The notes: generated by a model not told the origin, from the letters alone. DNA of 64,000 nt from Alphaproteobacteria bacterium (GCA_900767645.1 CAAFZY010000005.1:28986-92985); one strand, 5' to 3'. Positions 4,651 to 36,831 are shown, counted from the first letter of the stretch. Program-made: numbers and translations.

Positions 4651-5583
4651 TTATTTCTCCTTAAAATTTAACCCTAAAAATTTAATGTCATTTTTAAAAT
4701 AGTCAGGCAGAGGGGCTTTGACAACCAGCTTTTTATTATAAACCGGCGATAAGTCGATTTTATAAGCATGCAAATGCAGCTTTGAACTTAATTCAGGAAA
4801 GCGCTTGCGCGATTGTCCGAAATATTTGTTGTCGCCTAAAATGGGGCAACCGGCGCATTCCATGTGCGCGCGAATCTGGTGGGTGCGTCCGGTTAAAGGT
4901 TCCGCGGTTAAAAGGGTGAATTTTTCTCCGGCAGTATCTAAAACCTTAAAACGAGTTACGGCTTTTTTACCTTCATCGCTCGGCTCCATTTTTTCACCTA
5001 CTTTATCGAGCGCAATTTTAATTTCGCCTTCGGGATTTTTAAGATTGCCGATAGCAAGCACCAAATAAGTTTTTTGCAACATATGCTCGCGAAAAGCTTT
5101 GGTTAAAAGTTCGGCATAGCGGCGGTTGCGAGCAAGCACTAAAACGCCGCTGGTGTCTTTGTCAATGCGGTGAACAAGTTTGGGTTTTTCGGAATTTTCA
5201 AATTTTAATGCTTCAAGCATGCCGTCAATGTGGCGGTCGGTATTGGTTCCGCCTTGCACAGCCAATCCCGACGGTTTGTTTAATACAATAATGTTGTCAT
5301 CTTTGAAAATAACCATAGATTGAATAAAATCAGTGTCGGATTTTGAAACCACATCCGGATTTTTAATTGCTTTTTCGTTGTCAAGCGGAGGCAGGCGCAA
5401 TTCCTGCCCCGCACTTAAACGAGTGTTGGCCTCGGCTTTTTTGCCGTCAACTTTAATTTGTTTGGTGCGCAAAAGTTTTTGCAATCTGCCCAAAGTAAGA
5501 GAAGGATATTCTTTTAAAAACCAGCGATTAAGTCTGATACCGTCATCTTCCGGTTTGATTTTTACAAAAGTTACGCCTGACAT
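4651..5583 (-). CDS. rluC: 23S rRNA pseudouridine synthase, RluC/RluD family
   Basis: S4 domain followed by the HRIDKDTSGVLVLA catalytic motif and GRTHQIRAH. Confidence 0.8.
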   Translation of the reverse strand: MSGVTFVKIKPEDDGIRLNRWFLKEYPSLTLGRLQKLLRTKQIKVDGKKAEANTRLSAGQELRLPPLDNEKAIKNPDVVSKSDTDFIQSMVIFKDDNIIVLNKPSGLAVQGGTNTDRHIDGMLEALKFENSEKPKLVHRIDKDTSGVLVLARNRRYAELLTKAFREHMLQKTYLVLAIGNLKNPEGEIKIALDKVGEKMEPSDEGKKAVTRFKVLDTAGEKFTLLTAEPLTGRTHQIRAHMECAGCPILGDNKYFGQSRKRFPELSSKLHLHAYKIDLSPVYNKKLVVKAPLPDYFKNDIKFLGLNFKEK

Positions 5584-12248: not shown

Positions 12249-13159
12249 TGGATAAAATGCTCGCGGCATTTTTTGAGTTTGTGTTTGACCGGCAGGCGGT
12301 TTGGCATAAGCGCACGGCTTTAGGGTTGCCGGCGCCGTGGACGGACGATAATATTTTGCAAAATTTCAGGTTTTGCAATGTGTATCGCGAACTTGACGGC
12401 GGAACGATTGCCATCGGCAAATATTTGGCGCAGCCGCTGCCGGCGGAGCAAAAGTTGTTTAATATTATTGCGTACCGCTTTTTTAATCGGCGTGACACAA
12501 TTGAAAATTTGTTCGGAGGGCTGCTTTCAGAGCAAAATTTTGACTTTAAAACCTTGGAAAAGCGTTTTGACGCTAAAAAGAAAGAAGAAAACATTTTCTC
12601 AAACGCATATTTGATTACGGCGCACGCCTATAACCGCAATTACCGTCCGCAAGACAAGCATGTGCAAATTTTGCTGATGCTGAATGATTTGCGCTTTAAG
12701 CTGAAAGATATAATCAAAACTCTGCACGAATCGGCACCGCAAGAGGGTTTGCGGATTATTGCCGAGGCAGTGCCGATGGCGGGGCCGTTTTTGGCGGGGC
12801 AGATTTTGCTTGACGCAACATACGCTAAAAACATTGTGCCCTATACCGCGAATGATTTTTTAATTGTGGGTCCGGGGGCGCATTGGGGACTTAACATAAT
12901 TTGCGGGCGCGCGCTTAATAAAAAAGAGGCAGATGCGGAATGTCGCAAATTGTGGCAAATGCAACCGCAGGCGTTTGCAGAGCTTAAACAAACGACCGAC
13001 AAAGACTGGAACGAGGTCAGATGGCAAAACGAATCGTATTGCGGCGGCAAGTATTTATGTTTGCACGATGTGCAAAACAGCTTGTGCGAATTTAGAAAAT
13101 ATTGGCGATTAAAACAAGGCGAAAACGCCAAAAGGCGTTATTTTAAGCCGACAAATTAA
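12248..13159 (+). CDS. conserved uncharacterised protein, translationally coupled to recX (TAATGG overlap)
   Basis: 303 aa with FRFCNVYRELDGGT and VGPGAHWGLNI motifs. No confident family assignment. Confidence 0.5.
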   Translation: MDKMLAAFFEFVFDRQAVWHKRTALGLPAPWTDDNILQNFRFCNVYRELDGGTIAIGKYLAQPLPAEQKLFNIIAYRFFNRRDTIENLFGGLLSEQNFDFKTLEKRFDAKKKEENIFSNAYLITAHAYNRNYRPQDKHVQILLMLNDLRFKLKDIIKTLHESAPQEGLRIIAEAVPMAGPFLAGQILLDATYAKNIVPYTANDFLIVGPGAHWGLNIICGRALNKKEADAECRKLWQMQPQAFAELKQTTDKDWNEVRWQNESYCGGKYLCLHDVQNSLCEFRKYWRLKQGENAKRRYFKPTN

Positions 13160-28752: not shown

Positions 28753-28918
28753 GGTTCTTTGCAGAGGTATTATAAAAGGCACAAGTTTTATAAAAGGTGC
28801 CTGTTTACAAAATTACAAAAGGTGGCGGATTTTCCCCACCTTTTGGTGTTTTAAAAAACTTAAGGGAATTTTTATAAATACACAGTATCGTTATAATTGT
28901 TTAACGAAAGGAACAACT

Positions 28919-29830
28919 ATGGATAGGCAAGTAATTGAAATTATGAATGATGGCTTTATGCTGTCATTGCACCGAGGTTTTATTGTAGTTGAAAATAAAG
29001 AGCAGCAAATTAAACATGAAGTTCCGCTTGATAATGTGCTTGCGTTGGTGCTATCGGCCAACAATGTGGTGGTTTCAAAAAATATTATAAATGCAATTTG
29101 CGAGCAGGGCAGAAATGTTATTTTTTGTGATAAGACTTACCTGCCTTCCGCAATTACTATGCCATATACCGGACATTGGCTGATTGCTCCGCGAGTTAGG
29201 CAGCAGGTTGAATGCTCAAAACCATTACAAAAAAACTTATGGAAAAGTATTGTTCAGCATAAAATTTTGAATCAAGCTTTGGTGTTGGAATATTTTTTTC
29301 CGCAGCATGCCAATATTGAACGATTAAAACAATTATCAAAAGCAACGCTAAGTGATGATGCCAGAAATAATGAGGGAATCGCAGCGTCTATTTATTTTAA
29401 ATCATTATTCGGAAAACATTTTGTGCGCGACCGTCTTAATAATGATGTCAATATTTTGCTTAACTATACATACACGGTATTGCGCGCCGTTGTGGCCAGA
29501 GCAATTGCCGGAAGCGGATTATTGCCATATTTAGGGCTTAAGCATTGCACAAAGTCTAATCCGTTGCCGTTGGTTGATGATTTAATTGAACCGTTCAGAG
29601 CAGTGGCAGATAAAATTGTGTTTGAAGAGTTAAATAAGTTGGTGGATATAAGCAATATTGAATTAACTCCTGAAATTAAGCGCAATTTGGCAAAAGTTAT
29701 TACATATTCGGTGCAAACGGCTAAAGGCTGTATGTCATTAAATGATGCGCTTTGTGATTTTGCCGGTACTTTAGTTGCCAGTTTTGAGCAAAAGAAAGTA
29801 GCGTTAAAATATCCCGATATTTTGTTTTAA
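28919..29830 (+). CDS. cas1: CRISPR-associated endonuclease Cas1 (type II)
   Basis: FCDKTYLPS..., EGIAASIYFKSLFGKHFVR and LPYLGLKH motifs. The start was chosen at ATG 28919 (RBS AAAGGAAC) rather than at the ORF-track start 28739. Confidence 0.85.
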   Translation: MDRQVIEIMNDGFMLSLHRGFIVVENKEQQIKHEVPLDNVLALVLSANNVVVSKNIINAICEQGRNVIFCDKTYLPSAITMPYTGHWLIAPRVRQQVECSKPLQKNLWKSIVQHKILNQALVLEYFFPQHANIERLKQLSKATLSDDARNNEGIAASIYFKSLFGKHFVRDRLNNDVNILLNYTYTVLRAVVARAIAGSGLLPYLGLKHCTKSNPLPLVDDLIEPFRAVADKIVFEELNKLVDISNIELTPEIKRNLAKVITYSVQTAKGCMSLNDALCDFAGTLVASFEQKKVALKYPDILF

Positions 29831-29945
29831 ATAAAATAATGGGGGTAACTAAAGTCGCCCCCTCATCTTACGGCATTTTCAGCCTTATTATATATGTGTT
29901 GACCGTCTAATTAATCTCTGAAAAATAAGCCAACTTATATAACAA
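29831..29945 (-). ncRNA. predicted tracrRNA
   Basis: On the minus strand there is a TTGACA-16-TATATA promoter (29979-29952). It is followed by a 24-nt anti-repeat (UCAGAGAUUAAUUAGACGGUCAAC) perfectly complementary to repeat nt 7-30. A nexus-like AAGGCUGAAAAUGCCGU and a GGGGG...CCCCC hairpin plus U-run terminator follow, ending next to the cas1 stop. Confidence 0.6.
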
Positions 29946-30031
29946 TATTAGTATATAAAAAATTTAATTGAATTGTCAATTAAAATATTGTACCGTTGCT
30001 TATATTTCTATTAAAATTATAGGAGCTTGCT

Positions 30032-33000
30032 ATGAAATATTGTTTAGGACTTGATTTAGGCGTTGGCTCAATCGGTAGCGTGGTTGTGGAATTAGATAAA
30101 AATAATAATCCTGAAAATATTGCAGATGCCGGAGTGCGGATTTTTGAGGTATCGGAGGGCGCAGAAGAAAGGCGAACAAAACGCACGGCGCGTAAAAATT
30201 TAATCAGAACAAGAAAACGTTTAGAACTTTTAGCACAAAAATTGTATGAAAATAATTTATGGGTTAGTGCGAATCCTGAAGGCACAAATAATTTAAAATC
30301 AAAATCTCCTTATAAAATTCGTTATGATGCTTTAAATGGTAAGTTGGAAAATCAAAATTATATCGGGCGAGCAATTTTGCATTTGGCGAAACATCGTGGT
30401 GCCGGTTTTGTTTCAGCCGCTGAAGAAATGGAAGAAGAAGTTTTAGAAGAAGGCGAAAAATCTAAAGCTAAAAAATCTTCTTATGACATGATGCTTTATC
30501 ATTTAAAAGAAACAAATTCCAGAACTGTCGGTGAGTTTTTTTACAATAAAATAATCTCCGGTAAAGGAAATGATAAAACGGTTCGTCAGAAAAAATATGC
30601 CATTGAAAAGAATATTATAGATTACGCAATTCCGCGCTATTTGGTAAAAGATGAGTTCAATCAAATTTGGAATAAACAAGCCGAATTTTATCCACAGATG
30701 AAAAAAGAAAATTTAAAGAAAGAAATTTACGATATTTTGTTTTATGAACGTCCGGCAGCACCATACGCAACCGGTAAATGCATTTATTTCAGGGATGAAG
30801 ACCGCCTGCTAAAAGCGCACCCTCTTTCAGAGATGCGCCGTATTTATGAGGAAGTCAACAACATTCGTATTTTAAATGATATGAGTAAAAGAAAATTAAC
30901 CTTGGAAGAAAGAGATTCTATTATTAATGAGCTTTTGCTAAAAGGCCAAAATGCAGGTAAACAGGCAATCAAAAAATTGCTTAATTTGTCTGCGCAACAC
31001 AAAATTTCTTTGGTTGATGACAGAGTAATTAAAGCCTATTTATATTCTCGTCCTGAATTTGCAAATAACGAATATTTACAAAAGATGAATGAAGACGAGC
31101 TTTCATCTTTTATTGAGTTTTTGTCAGAACCAAAAATATCACAGGATAAAAATGGCCGTTTATACAATGAAGATTCGTTAATTGAGTATCTTAAGCCAAT
31201 TCTGAAAATTGATGACGAAAAAGAAATCGGCAACCTTTTAACCAAACTGCCCAAAGGGAGAGGAATGTTAGGTATAAGCGCCACAAAAATTATTCTGGAA
31301 AAATTAAAAGAAGATGTATTAACACATCGTGAAATTACCGATAAATTAGCCGAAACAGATAAACGATTTATGGCAGAGGAAGAAATAGCCCGCCAAAATC
31401 AGGGAAAATGTTTTCAACTTCCGTATTACGGGGAGATCTTGCAAACAGATACGGCTCCGCTTCCGCCTTTAATGATAAATAACAACAAGAGCCTTAACCA
31501 TGACGAGATAAAATGGGGTAAAATAGCCAATCCTGCCGTGCATATGATTCTCAATCAAATTCGCTTAGTTGTTAATGAAATTATCAAAATTTACGGCAAG
31601 CCTTACAATATCAATATTGAACTTGGTCGTGATGTCGGTATGTCAACAAAGAAGAAAAAAGAATTTGAAAACAGACAAAAACAAAATGAAAAACTTAATG
31701 AAGAGGCTAAAAAATATTTAAAAGAGCATAAAATTGTCATAAACAGTAAAAACATTTTAAAATACAAATTGGCCAAAGAGCAAGGCTGGAAAGATGCCTA
31801 TAATCCGACACAAAATATTTCTTCCGTATTTACGGGTATGGAAGTTGAGCATATTATTCCCCAAGCCAAAGGCGGAACAGATACATATAACAATCTCTGT
31901 TTAGTTAATAGCAATGACAACTTAAATAAAGGCGACCGATATGCCTATGAATATTTTGCAGAAACAAAAACACCGGAAGAAATCAGAGAAATTCTAAAAA
32001 ATGCCCGTTCCCGTACCCCTGACAAGTCTTGGCGTTTTGAAGCTGATGCGCGAGAAAAATATGAAGAAAGCGGCGATAAAGAAGAAAGTACCCGTTATTT
32101 GACGGATACCCGCTATGTTGCAAAAATGGCGGCACGTTATTTGCGAGCTATTGTTGATTGCCCTGATTGTGATGAAGTTATGGACAATCGTATTTTGGCA
32201 GTCAAAGGCGGGCAGACTGCAGAGTTGCGTAAGCGTTGGGATTTGCAAGGCTTGGAATATGATTTAATGGGCTTAAATATCCCGAGATATATTGATTGCG
32301 CGCCATATTGGCGGGAGTTGGATACCGGCGAAATAATTGACGGAGAGCAAAAGCCGGATATTGATGGTAATTGGAAATTTTATAATTGTGTAAAGAATCC
32401 TGAATGGTCGCCAAAGCCACGTATTGACCACAGACATCATGCGATGGATGCTATAACAGTTGCTTGTGCAAACCGTGGATTAATTCAGAAAATGGCAGAA
32501 GAAAATGATATTAACAAAATTCATTATCCGTTGCCTTTAACTTCTGTTGAATCTGTAGCAGATTTTAGAAGAAAAGTTATTTCCTGTCTAAAAGATATCA
32601 AAATTTCGCACAAACCTGATCACAGTAAGGCTGGACAATTACATAAAGAAACAGGCAGAACTGTTTTGTGTCAAAACCCTGATGATCCAAATTGTTTAAT
32701 CACTGTTTATTCTCGCAAAATTTTACAGGTGGTAAAATCTGCTAAAGATTTAACTAAACTGCTCATTCCAGAAACAATCAAGAATGAATGGCATGAGGAT
32801 ATTGCAGAATATAAAGCCAAACAGGCTAAGCTAGTACAAGATTTTGAACTTTATATGAATACGGCGGAGCAAATTTTAATTGCCGAAAATGAACAGGGTG
32901 TGGCAGAAGGTAAAAAGGAAATTAAAATTACTGAAGGAAGAATTTTGTTAAAGGCGTTCCGTATTATTCAAGATAAAGGCCTATGGAAAGGTGATAAATT

Positions 33001-33499
33001 TAGATGCTATGAAAATAATTCTTCTTTGGTTTATATCAAAAAACATGGTGTGGCTTATGAAGGGCGAAATAACCATTGTGTAGATTTTTACGTTAAAGAT
33101 GGTAAAGTCGGTTGGGAGGTTATTAAACGATTTGATGCAAATCAGCCTGATTTTGTTCCGCAATGGAAAAAAGACGGAGGAAAACTTATTTGGTCAGTTC
33201 AACAACGCGATATGTTGGAATTAGATACTCCTGATGAGTGGAAATCATATACCGATAAAGAGCGCTGTTTAGCTAAAGTAAAAAAGTTCAGCGATGGAGA
33301 ATTTAATATTGATTATATGGCTGACGCTCGTATGACATCGCCAAAAGATAAAAACTTAAAATATATGTTTGTTAATACTTTAAGAAAGGGGCTGGCATTT
33401 TTACTTCAGCATAAAGCGCGGAAAATAGAACTTACACCGTTTGGCAAAGTAAAGAAAAAACATAAGGTGTTGTGGAATGGCACGAAGACAGCGGCTTGA
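30032..33499 (+). CDS. cas9: Cas9 (type II-C-like, 1155 aa)
   Basis: RuvC-I GLDLGVGSIGSVVV. Arg-rich bridge helix. RuvC-II NINIELGRD. HNH VEHIIPQAKGG...NLCLVNSNDNLNKGDRYAYEYF. RuvC-III HRHHAMDAITVA. An RBS AGGAG precedes the ATG. Confidence 0.95.
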   Translation: MKYCLGLDLGVGSIGSVVVELDKNNNPENIADAGVRIFEVSEGAEERRTKRTARKNLIRTRKRLELLAQKLYENNLWVSANPEGTNNLKSKSPYKIRYDALNGKLENQNYIGRAILHLAKHRGAGFVSAAEEMEEEVLEEGEKSKAKKSSYDMMLYHLKETNSRTVGEFFYNKIISGKGNDKTVRQKKYAIEKNIIDYAIPRYLVKDEFNQIWNKQAEFYPQMKKENLKKEIYDILFYERPAAPYATGKCIYFRDEDRLLKAHPLSEMRRIYEEVNNIRILNDMSKRKLTLEERDSIINELLLKGQNAGKQAIKKLLNLSAQHKISLVDDRVIKAYLYSRPEFANNEYLQKMNEDELSSFIEFLSEPKISQDKNGRLYNEDSLIEYLKPILKIDDEKEIGNLLTKLPKGRGMLGISATKIILEKLKEDVLTHREITDKLAETDKRFMAEEEIARQNQGKCFQLPYYGEILQTDTAPLPPLMINNNKSLNHDEIKWGKIANPAVHMILNQIRLVVNEIIKIYGKPYNINIELGRDVGMSTKKKKEFENRQKQNEKLNEEAKKYLKEHKIVINSKNILKYKLAKEQGWKDAYNPTQNISSVFTGMEVEHIIPQAKGGTDTYNNLCLVNSNDNLNKGDRYAYEYFAETKTPEEIREILKNARSRTPDKSWRFEADAREKYEESGDKEESTRYLTDTRYVAKMAARYLRAIVDCPDCDEVMDNRILAVKGGQTAELRKRWDLQGLEYDLMGLNIPRYIDCAPYWRELDTGEIIDGEQKPDIDGNWKFYNCVKNPEWSPKPRIDHRHHAMDAITVACANRGLIQKMAEENDINKIHYPLPLTSVESVADFRRKVISCLKDIKISHKPDHSKAGQLHKETGRTVLCQNPDDPNCLITVYSRKILQVVKSAKDLTKLLIPETIKNEWHEDIAEYKAKQAKLVQDFELYMNTAEQILIAENEQGVAEGKKEIKITEGRILLKAFRIIQDKGLWKGDKFRCYENNSSLVYIKKHGVAYEGRNNHCVDFYVKDGKVGWEVIKRFDANQPDFVPQWKKDGGKLIWSVQQRDMLELDTPDEWKSYTDKERCLAKVKKFSDGEFNIDYMADARMTSPKDKNLKYMFVNTLRKGLAFLLQHKARKIELTPFGKVKKKHKVLWNGTKTAA

Positions 33500-33518
33500 A
33501 ACTTTAACCGGATGGTCT

Positions 33519-33839
33519 ATGATGTGGATAATATGTATGTTTGATATTCCGGTCAGGACTAAAACCGAAATGCGTAAAGCGACTCGTTTTCGTAATTTGC
33601 TTTTGGATAATGGTTTTGTTATGAAGCAGTTTTCGGTTTATATAAAACCGGTAAAAAGCTTAAATGTTGGACAAACAGTCACGAAAAGCCTTGCAAAGTA
33701 TATTCCGGATAACTCTTCTGTCTCTTTTTTATATATTACCGATAAACAATATTTAATGACGGAAAATTATTTGGGAAAAAATTATGAAGAGAATGAAGAA
33801 GAGAATCGCGAAAAAAATGGGCAATTATTGCTTTTTTAA
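33519..33839 (+). CDS. cas2: Cas2
   Basis: MMWIICMFDIPVRTKTEMRKATRFRNLLLDNGFVMKQFSVYIK matches the Cas2 beta1-alpha1 pattern. The ORF-track start 33477 would overlap cas9 by 23 nt, so the ATG at 33519 is preferred. Confidence 0.8.
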   Translation: MMWIICMFDIPVRTKTEMRKATRFRNLLLDNGFVMKQFSVYIKPVKSLNVGQTVTKSLAKYIPDNSSVSFLYITDKQYLMTENYLGKNYEENEEENREKNGQLLLF

Positions 33840-33865
33840 GGGTGTCTTTTAGCGTTTTTATAATA

Positions 33866-33900
33866 AACAAAAGCCTTGAAATGTTGTCATTTCAAGGCTT
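33866..33900 (-). terminator. hairpin terminator in the CRISPR leader, oriented for minus-strand (pre-crRNA) transcripts
   Basis: gccttgaaat-gttgtc-atttcaaggc stem-loop. On the minus strand it is followed by UUUUGUUUAUUAU. Confidence 0.5.
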
Positions 33901-33913
33901 TGCGCTATTAGAT

Positions 33914-34740
33914 AGCATATCAGAGATTAATTAGACGGTCAACTATAACTATTTCGCCCTCAATGTATCGATATTTTGTAGCATATCAGAGATTAATTAG
34001 ACGGTCAACTATAACGCTTGGTTCTGCGACGTCTCAAGGACATTTAGCATATCAGAGATTAATTAGACGGTCAACTATAACACAGTACCGGCAATGTTGT
34101 ATAGTCGTCACAGCATATCAGAGATTAATTAGACGGTCAACTATAACTGCCACCCATGAGCCCGCTTGCTATTTCTAGCATATCAGAGATTAATTAGACG
34201 GTCAACTATAACTAGCTGTCAATAGCTTTTTTATTATTTTCCAGCATATCAGAGATTAATTAGACGGTCAACTATAACTAATTTACTGTGCTCTTTTTGC
34301 TGAATAAAAGCATATCAGAGATTAATTAGACGGTCAACTATAACAGAAGTATGACGAGTACTCAGAATATTATAAGCATATCAGAGATTAATTAGACGGT
34401 CAACTATAACACAAGCTGCAGGATAGGCTTATTCAGCAAAGCATATCAGAGATTAATTAGACGGTCAACTATAACATGTTTTGCTCAATAACAGTTTTGT
34501 TAACTAGCATATCAGAGATTAATTAGACGGTCAACTATAACGCTAAAATGTTAGCGTTGGTCTTTATTGACAGCATATCAGAGATTAATTAGACGGTCAA
34601 CTATAACTATCCGGACATATTATACATCATGTCACCAAGCATATCAGAGATTAATTAGACGGTCAACTATAACAATTTTCGGACGGTGTCGGCGCATAAG
34701 TGAAGCATATCAGAGATTAATTAGACGGTCAACTTATAAC
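33914..34740 (-). CRISPR. CRISPR array of 13 copies of a 36-bp repeat and 12 spacers (ten of 30 bp, two of 29 bp). The repeat on the crRNA strand is GTTATAGTTGACCGTCTAATTAATCTCTGATATGCT.
   Basis: Repeat copies start at 33914, 33980, 34046, 34112, 34177, 34243, 34309, 34375, 34440, 34506, 34572, 34638 and 34704. The cas-distal repeat (34704-34740) carries a 1-nt insertion. The repeat begins with GTT in minus orientation and is complementary to the tracrRNA anti-repeat. Confidence 0.95.
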
Positions 34741-34755
34741 CAAGTATTGTTATAG

Positions 34756-34866
34756 CCTTTCGCTTGTAGTCGGTCTGGCTTGTAAGCTCTGCCTAAAGGC
34801 AATCGCTAACTGCGCTGCGGTCACTTGTTTTGTAAGCTCGCTGCGGTTGCTGTCGCTTTCCTTGCT
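34756..34866. repeat. partial copy (3' half) of the ~185-bp repeat element whose full copy is at 56968-57150
   Basis: cctttcgcttgtagtcggtctggct...gctgcggttgctgtcgctttcc is about 90% identical to 57031-57141. Confidence 0.7.
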
Positions 34867-35005
34867 CGCGAACAAAACTACGCTTTCGGCGATAAAAAAG
34901 CAGATAACAGCTTTTTTATCTTGAAACTCACTCCGTGAGTTCGAACCTCTACTTTCACTCATTATTTACAACAAAACCCGCCACAAGGGCGGGTGTTGTT
35001 GTAAA

Positions 35006-35026
35006 TGGCGGATAGAGTGAGATTAT
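35006..35026. repeat. duplicated 3' end of tRNA-Ser (aatggcggatagagtgagatt), att-like direct repeat
   Basis: A 21-nt exact copy of 35172-35192 lies about 150 bp from the tRNA. It is preceded by a GC hairpin. Confidence 0.65.
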
Positions 35027-35105
35027 TCCGCTGCGCTTCATTCACTGTGCTCATCGGCTATCGCCGACCGGCGTACTCCCGTCCGCCTTTCGCTTGTAGT
35101 CGAAC
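35027..35105. repeat. partial copy (5' part) of the ~185-bp repeat element
   Basis: attccgctgcgcttcattcactgtgctcatcggctatcgccgaccggcg...cctttcgcttgtagtcg is about 90% identical to 56968-57047. Confidence 0.7.
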
Positions 35106-35174
35106 TCACTTCTCGTGAGTTCTTATCTTCTGAATATGCCATTACAAAAAGCCCCATAAAGGGGCTTTTTGTAA

Positions 35175-35265
35175 TGGCGGATAGAGTGAGATTCGAACTC
35201 ACGGTACCCTTTGGAGGTACACACGATTTCCAATCGTGCGCCTTAGACCGCTCGGCCATCTATCC
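35175..35265 (-). tRNA. tRNA-Ser (anticodon GGA)
   Basis: 91-nt cloverleaf GGATAGATGGCCGAGCGG...UUGGAAA anticodon loop...long variable arm...GTTCGAATC...GCCA, reconstructed from the reverse complement. Confidence 0.85.
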
Positions 35266-36144: not shown

Positions 36145-36831
36145 TTATTTAGCTTCATCGGGGTCACGCAGAACATAACCTCTGCCCCAAACGGTTTCAA
36201 TATAGTTTTTACCGCCGGAAGCGTGTTCAAGTTTTTTGCGCAACTTGCAAATAAAGACGTCAATAATTTTAAGTTCCGGCTCATCAATACCGCCGTACAG
36301 ATGGTTTAAGAACTGGTCTTTGTTTAAGGTTGAACCTTTGCGCAATGAAAGCAGTTCCATAATGCCGTATTCTTTGCCGGTAAGGTGCAAAGCTTTGCCG
36401 CCTACGGTTACGGTTTGCGTATCTAAATTAACTTCAACCTCGCCGGTTCTGATGATGGAATTGGAATGTCCTTTAGAGCGGCGTACAATAGCTTGAATAC
36501 GCGCTAACAATTCAGCTTTGTCAAATGGTTTGGTTAAGTAATCATCGGCGCCGTATCCTAAGCCTTTAACCTTTTTATCGGGCTCGGATAAACCTGATAA
36601 AATCAGTACCGGAGTGTTGACTTTGGCGTTACGAAGGCTTTTAAGAACTTCATATCCGTTCATATCCGGCAACATTAAGTCAAGAATAATGATATCGTAA
36701 TCATATAATTTACCGATTTCCAAACCATCTTCACCCAAATCAGTGGCATCAACAATCATACCTTCTTTTTTGAGCATGGTTTCAATGCTTTGCGAAACGG
36801 CGTAATCATCTTCAACTAACAGCACTCTCAT
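36145..36831 (-). CDS. ctrA: cell-cycle response regulator CtrA
   Basis: From memory it is near-identical over its whole length to Caulobacter CtrA (MRVLLVEDD...[21 protein letters not shown]...[44 protein letters not shown]...[13 protein letters not shown]). Confidence 0.9.

Follow-up and report, generated by a model that had tools for sequence, protein, structure and literature searches.

From which promoter, or promoters, are the crRNAs of this CRISPR array produced? The window, which is the whole stretch of 64,000 nucleotides analysed here (Alphaproteobacteria bacterium, GCA_900767645.1 CAAFZY010000005.1:28986-92985; 41% G+C; coordinates counted from its first letter), carries a type II-C locus in which the first-pass annotation had placed a promoter on the minus strand of every repeat, as in Neisseria meningitidis and Campylobacter jejuni. 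This proposal is supported by the strand of the crRNAs, the position of the motif in the repeat, its variation in the family and the flank of the array. Judged from the sequence, there is a good probability that each repeat of the array is a functional promoter.

The locus and the strand of its crRNAs

The elements of the locus are arranged in the order cas1, tracrRNA, cas9, cas2 and array. The cas9 gene (30032-33499, plus strand) encodes a protein of 1155 amino acids that matches TIGR01865 over its full length (7e-145), and cas2 (33477-33839, plus strand) was recognized by TIGR01573 (4e-16) and by Pfam CRISPR_Cas2. The type II cas1 gene (28920-29830, plus strand) matches NCBIfam TIGR03639 cas1_NMENI (1.1e-71) and Pfam Cas_Cas1. 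Its ORF is listed from a TTG codon at 28739, and the TIGR03639 match begins at residue 65 of this long ORF; the start of cas1 is probably the ATG at 28920, which is preceded by an RBS-like GGAAC. Just 5' of cas1 lies an ORF for a strongly hydrophobic product of 95 amino acids (28465-28752, plus strand), which has no match in Pfam or NCBIfam and is followed by a terminator-like hairpin (28824-28840). By profile matches, cas1, cas9 and cas2 are the only cas genes of the locus, and neither csn2 nor cas4 was found among the neighbours, namely FadL, a small membrane ORF without family match, HxlR, tRNA-Ser, an RgpF-like protein and CtrA. Among solved structures, the NmeCas9 entries 8ja0, 6kc8 and 6jdq are the closest to this Cas9 (1e-44), followed by other compact Cas9s, and these structure-database matches place it in the II-C lineage. 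Since the locus has cas1, cas9 and cas2 only and its Cas9 is closest to NmeCas9, it is assigned to type II-C. The host is regarded as an alphaproteobacterium because a CtrA response regulator is encoded at 36145-36831.

The window, like nearly all of the 60 related loci used for comparison, is assigned to an uncultured gut alphaproteobacterium; the animals from which these relatives come are humans, deer, mice and chickens. Cas9 of the window is 90% identical to that of L001, a locus with the majority layout, and 73% identical to that of L046, whereas its Cas1 is 84% identical to that of L046 and 71% identical to that of L001. Because Cas9 and Cas1 have different nearest relatives, the locus is a mosaic, and this suggests recombination within it, perhaps near the tracrRNA gene.

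The sense of the crRNAs can be read from the tracrRNA. In the gap between cas1 and cas9, an anti-repeat (29921-29898, minus strand) is identical at 24/24 nucleotides to positions 7-30 of the plus-strand repeat. It is followed by a 5-nt bulge and UAUAAU, by a nexus-like GGC...GCC hairpin (29884-29872), and by a terminator that consists of a stem at 29862-29841 (GGGGGCG...CCCCC) and a U-run at 29840-29829. The consensus scan found the promoter TTGACA-18-TATACT (29950-29979, minus strand), which agrees with the consensus at 11/12 positions. The tracrRNA predicted from the anti-repeat, the hairpins and the cofold covers 29829-29943 on the minus strand, its 5' end being set from this promoter. When cofolded, the crRNA repeat and the tracrRNA form 24 bp, a 5-nt bulge and a further 6 bp (UAUAAU with GUUAUA). 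A search of Rfam at gathering thresholds returned three tRNAs only and no CRISPR-DR or tracrRNA family. Among the related loci, compensatory changes occur in both tracrRNA hairpins, and a promoter like TTGAC[A/T]-17/18-TAnnnT is kept in 36/37.

Because this anti-repeat pairs only with a minus-strand crRNA, the array is transcribed towards cas2, convergent with cas9-cas2. The minus-strand crRNA sense assumed at the outset is thus fixed by the tracrRNA gene on that strand, whose promoter is conserved and whose terminator covaries and is followed by a U-run. Type II-C is expected to have a tracrRNA that carries an anti-repeat, together with an array transcribed against the direction of cas9, and both are seen here from sequence and covariation. 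The idea that the 13th repeat serves as the anti-repeat of a plus-strand tracrRNA was rejected, because the tracrRNA gene was located directly before cas9, both in the window and in 47 of the 49 related loci with arrays.

Two further sequences around the tracrRNA are recorded here. In L009, the plus strand carries the best anti-repeat-like match before cas9 (5034-5057), about 0.8 kb farther from the array than is usual, and the sequence after it differs; this may be a repeat standing by itself, or the tracrRNA of this locus may be divergent. In the window, the anti-repeat region at 29899-29926, read on the plus strand, contains TTGACC, 16 nt and AAAAAT facing cas9. This is the only plus-strand promoter-like site between the tracrRNA and the cas9 start, and its A-rich hexamer is poorly conserved in relatives. 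A repeat-derived cas9 promoter at this place is a weak possibility.

The opposite direction of transcription was also considered, in which, in the textbook manner, the leader beside cas2 drives the array on the plus strand and a TATAAT hexamer at 33859-33864 is the promoter. Such a hexamer is present on this strand of the leader, and the degenerate repeat stands at the far end of the array, which marks the transcription-distal end in most CRISPR types. However, the best -35 box for this hexamer agrees with the consensus at 3/6 positions, related leaders do not keep the site, and the resulting crRNA would share the sense of the anti-repeat and be unable to pair with the minus-strand tracrRNA. 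Published type II-C arrays also acquire their spacers at the transcription-distal end. For its poor -35 box, its lack of conservation and its clash with the sense of the tracrRNA, the leader promoter was rejected, and plus-strand transcription is hardly credible.

The promoter-like motif of the repeat

The array (33914-34740, crRNA sense minus) was delimited by repeat identity and the consensus scan and consists of 13 repeats and 12 spacers. Twelve of the repeats are exact copies of 36 nt, starting on the plus strand at 33914, 33980, 34046, 34112, 34177, 34243, 34309, 34375, 34440, 34506, 34572 and 34638. Spacers are 29-30 nt long in the window, and 96% of those in related arrays are 30 nt. 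The minus-strand sequence of the repeat is GTTATAG TTGACC GTCTAATTAATCTCTGA TATGCT. In 13/13 repeats, the consensus scan found TTGACC-17-TATGCT on this strand, with TG upstream of the second hexamer, exactly the element claimed for every repeat. The -35 box TTGACC occupies positions 8-13 of the repeat, and after a spacing of 17 nt the -10 box TATGCT occupies positions 31-36, with TG at 28-29. For a repeat starting at plus coordinate s, the -10 box is at s to s+5, TG at s+7 to s+8 and the -35 box at s+23 to s+28. Each site has 9/12 consensus positions in addition to TG. The -10 box contributes 4/6, among them A2 and T6. The wording "near-consensus" used in the first-pass annotation is therefore generous, with 9/12 overall and a -10 box of 4/6.

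It is unlikely that this motif arose by chance. The cut-off for the test was a -35 box of at least 5/6, a spacing of 17 nt, TGn, and a -10 box of at least 4/6 with A2 and T6, and the 13 copies of the repeat were counted as one observation, not 13. Outside the array, sites equal or better occur three times in 126 kb, that is, both strands of the remaining 63 kb (2.4e-5 per position). When the repeat was shuffled, such a site ending exactly at the 3' end appeared in 8e-5 of trials. To judge from these frequencies, the motif of the repeat is real.

If the housekeeping sigma factor recognizes this promoter in each 36-nt repeat, the array would be transcribed on the minus strand towards cas2. The start is predicted about 7 nt into the next spacer, near s-7. 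Each crRNA would then have a 5'-triphosphate end, some 24 nt of spacer and after it the next repeat, in which GUUAUA and positions 7-30 would pair with the tracrRNA (29943-29829, minus strand). The 3' side would perhaps be trimmed by RNase III, and crRNA formation itself would presumably be independent of this enzyme. A purine preference at spacer positions 6-8 was not found in 695 distinct 30-nt spacers of related arrays, a test that is uninformative.

The same 695 spacers have two skews of composition. Position 14 in the crRNA sense is short of C (0.11, p = 9e-9), and position 30, beside the repeat, is rich in A/T (0.74, p = 2e-11). Selection bias, imprecise repeat boundaries and shared spacer ancestry are possible reasons.

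The variation of the motif in the family is informative. From 50 related arrays, 26 distinct consensus repeats were obtained. Without exception, their -35 box opens with TTGA, the spacing is 17 nt, TG is present and the -10 hexamer opens with TA. Positions 3-5 of this hexamer vary freely, giving 16 distinct hexamers among the 26 repeats, and its final base is T in 23/26 repeats and in 13/16 distinct hexamers (naive binomial 3e-5, calculated for lineages that are not independent). A perfect TATAAT is found in 5 distinct repeats, representing 9 loci. The sixth base of the -35 box is C, T or A, with TTGACA, the perfect box, in a single locus. As a point against a promoter, the final T is missing from the hexamers of five related loci (TATAAC, TATACC or TACGTA), and long arrays persist there. 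TAnnnT with free middle bases after TGn is the pattern expected of a sigma70 extended -10 element, as far as can be told from sequence. Since the tracrRNA promoter uses the same TTGAC[A/T] and TAnnnT boxes, the host polymerase is expected to read them.

Could the same pattern have arisen if the repeats were not promoters at all? In one such explanation, a single long minus-strand precursor starts outside the array, from upstream genes or cas1, is cut by RNase III with the tracrRNA and is trimmed at its 5' side as in type II-A, and the motif arises incidentally from other constraints that act on the repeat. The perfect 24-bp repeat:anti-repeat duplex would be a good substrate for RNase III. Moreover, the -35 box lies within the segment that pairs with the tracrRNA, so that its conservation could stem from pairing alone. 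This does not hold for the -10 element, because T31, A32 and T36 are outside the duplex and yet are conserved in the -10 pattern, so that pairing does not explain their conservation. Taken together with the flanks described below, an external precursor as the source of the crRNAs is unlikely.

In another explanation, the TGATAnnnT end and TTGAC exist for the integration of spacers or for the binding of Cas9 and do not act as a promoter, the Cas1-Cas2 complex reading an imperfect inverted repeat next to the leader. The T36 end does adjoin the leader, where integration takes place, and in L018, L035 and L040 the termini GTTATA...TATAAC are perfectly inverted copies of each other, while those of the TATAAT variants agree at 5/6 positions; the Nme repeat is symmetric in the same way, GTTGTAGC...GCTACAAT. 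However, symmetry predicts C as the final base, where 23/26 repeats have T. It also fails to account for the extra repeat at the cas-distal end, which is never an integration site or a handle and yet has kept TG in 30/30 and TA in 29/30 cases. A role in integration is, besides, compatible with a promoter, as both roles coexist in Nme. That the motif serves integration or Cas9 binding without promoter activity is quite improbable, more so than the external precursor, and a promoter in the repeat remains the preferred reading.

The extra repeat and the two flanks of the array

The extra repeat (34704-34740, minus strand) is the oldest of the array and the first to be transcribed, and it has an insertion of 1 nt at positions 4-7. 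On the plus strand it has CTTATAAC in place of CTATAAC, which corresponds to GTTATAAG in place of GTTATAG on the minus strand. As had been pointed out from the first, the insertion is upstream of the -35 box (positions 8-13), and both promoter boxes are intact. In the cofold of this repeat with the tracrRNA, the 6-bp lower stem is lost and the energy changes from -46.2 to -46.0 kcal/mol. There is no spacer upstream of the cas-distal repeat, so that it would act as a promoter for the oldest spacer only. A promoter-only role of such repeats is stated in PMC12080349, and it fits the decay of 30 distinct mutated extra repeats collected from related arrays. Mismatches per position amount to 0.53 at positions 1-7, 0.23 in the -35 box (8-13), 0.07 at positions 14-27, 0 in TG (28-29) and 0.02 in TA of the -10 box (31-32). 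TG is retained in all 30 and TA in 29, the exception being L013, which has TT. This decay agrees with selection for promoter function. It forms a gradient from the outer edge with no sharp step at the boxes, and is therefore supporting evidence and not proof.

Eight nucleotides past the extra repeat, the plus strand has GTTATAG (within 34741-34762), the reverse complement of the repeat's own end, and the first 7 nt of the extra repeat can form a small hairpin with this flank. It could be a chance 7-mer, could trace back to the inversion of the locus, or could fold so as to mask the extra repeat, and masking structures have been proposed for some type II-C arrays (PMC12080349).

On the side where transcription enters the array, an intrinsic-terminator-like hairpin, ACCCGCC...GGCGGGT followed by TTTGTTGTAA, lies at 34976-34994 on the minus strand; in the crRNA sense it precedes the array by 235 nt. 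It is downstream of a tRNA-Ser gene (35265-35175) and would shield the array from read-through of this gene. In the 235 nt between the terminator and the array, the consensus scan found no promoter-like site on the minus strand. These features argue against an external precursor in the window, where cas1 also lies elsewhere. Among related arrays, 15/42 have unrelated upstream flanks, and 5/42 have a promoter-like site within 150 nt. The arrays with unrelated upstream flanks are long (18-39 spacers) and uniform in their repeats, and their persistence likewise speaks against a precursor from outside.

Several duplications are found in the same flank. An exact second copy of the final 21 nt of tRNA-Ser(gga) (35173-35193) lies at 35004-35024, and a pair of 27-nt repeats, 34755-34781 and 35085-35111, is 330 nt apart. 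These duplications in 34742-35265 look like integration or duplication scars at a tRNA, and the CRISPR-Cas locus may be on an island beside tRNA-Ser.

The placement of cas1 in the family speaks for an external precursor. In 36/41 loci with cas1 placed (window included), cas1 is beyond the array on the crRNA-sense strand, abuts the array directly upstream and reads into it. Its stop codon can even fall in the first repeat: cas1 of L008 (12249-13202, minus strand) ends at 12249 with the TGA within TTGACT of the extra repeat. Because cas1 reads into the array in these loci, repeat promoters need not be the sole source of crRNAs there, and since its read-through could supply pre-crRNA in the majority layout, the argument that they are necessary is weaker for the family as a whole. 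In the window, and in L017, L046, L047 and L049, cas1 is upstream of the tracrRNA gene. The layout of these five loci is as if the block of tracrRNA, cas9, cas2 and array had been inverted. As read-through from cas1 is absent in the window, the argument for repeat promoters is stronger here.

These arrangements allow a more tentative proposal, which may be correct but which we would not back. One 36-nt repeat would combine a -35/-10 promoter, a Cas9/tracrRNA handle, an integration site and, in most sister loci, the end of cas1 at the TGA of TTGAC, the array being the 3' UTR of the cas1 mRNA; inversion of the block in the lineage of the window would have separated the array from cas1, so that crRNAs could come from the repeat promoters only. 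If this were true, the four-role repeat would tie the expression of an adaptation gene to crRNA/tracrRNA processing, and the window would be a natural test that repeat promoters suffice.

On the other side, the leader of 74 bp (33840-33913) extends from the cas2 stop codon (33839) to the first repeat (33914). It is the acquisition side and is downstream of the array in the crRNA sense; new spacers would be inserted at this cas2-proximal leader. The degenerate repeat is at the end of the array opposite to the leader, which is usual in type II-C (PMC12080349). The leader contains a hairpin with a 14-bp stem (33870-33901, minus strand), followed by a T-run at 33869-33860 on the minus strand, TGTTTATTAT. 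Its folding energy is -21.7 kcal/mol (z = -7.6) in the minus sense and -21.3 kcal/mol (z = -5.4) in the plus sense, and of the two strands the minus strand alone gives a terminator score.

In essentially every relative, a hairpin is found about 0-17 nt from the cas-proximal repeat. Covariation of the leader hairpin was evaluated in 37 loci, with the register of the pairs set by hand, as the RNAalifold consensus was off-register on the MAFFT alignment: 36 cells have changes on both sides, compared with 10.4 in shuffles, and 0/500 shuffles were as high. One pair of the outer stem is GC in 11, AU in 9, CG in 7 and UA in 4. Across the family, G:U pairs (40 vs 14) favour the minus sense, and the mean dG is -19.2 for minus vs -17.6 for plus. 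T-tails, anchored on the outermost G-C pair since the fold otherwise absorbs the flanking A/T runs into the stem, are 4.8 vs 4.7 of 10 in the two senses (p = 0.74). The earlier suggestion that the hairpin is oriented against minus-strand transcripts stands for the window, but is too narrow for the family, in which the orientation is less clear. The leader hairpin is probably a bidirectional terminator between the convergent crRNA and cas9-cas2 units; it would end the crRNA transcripts and probably also the transcription of cas9-cas2 from the opposite side.

Comparison with known type II systems

The array of the window is very probably a well-supported new example of a mechanism already known from Neisseria and Campylobacter. 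Promoters for crRNAs embedded in repeats were shown experimentally in Neisseria (Zhang et al., 2013, via PMC5965381 and PMC12477760) and in C. jejuni (Dugar et al., 2013, via PMC12080349 and PMC5965381). Nme crRNAs start at the 6th nucleotide of each spacer (PMC12477760; review, PMC5965381), and the arrays of N. meningitidis and C. jejuni are transcribed towards cas2, convergent with cas9-cas2 (PMC3737331). Repeat promoters, acquisition at the transcription-distal end, a decayed extra repeat that acts only as a promoter and insulating terminators upstream are all described for type II-C in PMC5965381, PMC12080349 and PMC12477760. The general understanding of type II-C systems is not altered by the array of the window.

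The system of N. meningitidis resembles that of the window in its 36-nt repeat starting with GTT.TAG, its 30-nt spacers, its array convergent with cas9-cas2 and the addition of new spacers at the transcription-distal, cas-proximal end, and NmeCas9 is the closest solved Cas9. The Nme repeat, GTTGTAGCTCCCTTTCTCATTTCGCAGTGCTACAAT in three published accounts, has TGnTAnnnT at positions 28-36, the same as the repeat of the window. The Nme repeat promoter relies on the extended -10 element and is not known to need a -35 box, whereas the repeat of the window adds a -35 box, TTGACC, 17 nt upstream. The -10 box of the window is weaker, TATGCT vs TACAAT of Nme. The gene order also differs from that of N. 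meningitidis, being cas1, tracrRNA, cas9, cas2 and array in the window; in most relatives cas1 is beyond the array.

The array resembles that of C. jejuni in the promoter assigned to every repeat, in the extra repeat at the transcription-proximal end, which is mutated but has to stay a promoter, and in the Rho-independent terminator upstream, which insulates the array. Unlike in C. jejuni, the upstream terminator of the window is 235 nt off and not adjacent. The extra repeat of the window, also unlike that of C. jejuni, has a single 1-nt insertion that barely changes the pairing energy. A conserved leader-side hairpin is not reported in the sections of PMC12080349 that were consulted.

The family would extend the production of crRNAs from repeat promoters to a large clade of uncultured gut Alphaproteobacteria, of which about 50 arrays were sampled. 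The comparative evidence, namely TAnnnT, the invariant TG, the -35 box and their retention in decayed extra repeats, is of a kind not found in the papers that were consulted. For practical use of this Cas9 family, the strands of crRNA and tracrRNA are fixed and the guide is likely to be 24 nt.

As in the type II-A system of S. pyogenes, the tracrRNA pairs with the repeat, and cleavage of the duplex by RNase III is probable. Type II-A has a leader promoter, an array co-directional with the cas genes and acquisition at the transcription-proximal end, and all three are reversed in the window. What sets the window apart from published type II-C systems, at the level of sequence, is the full -35 box at 17 nt, the family-wide leader-side hairpin and the unusual placement of cas1.
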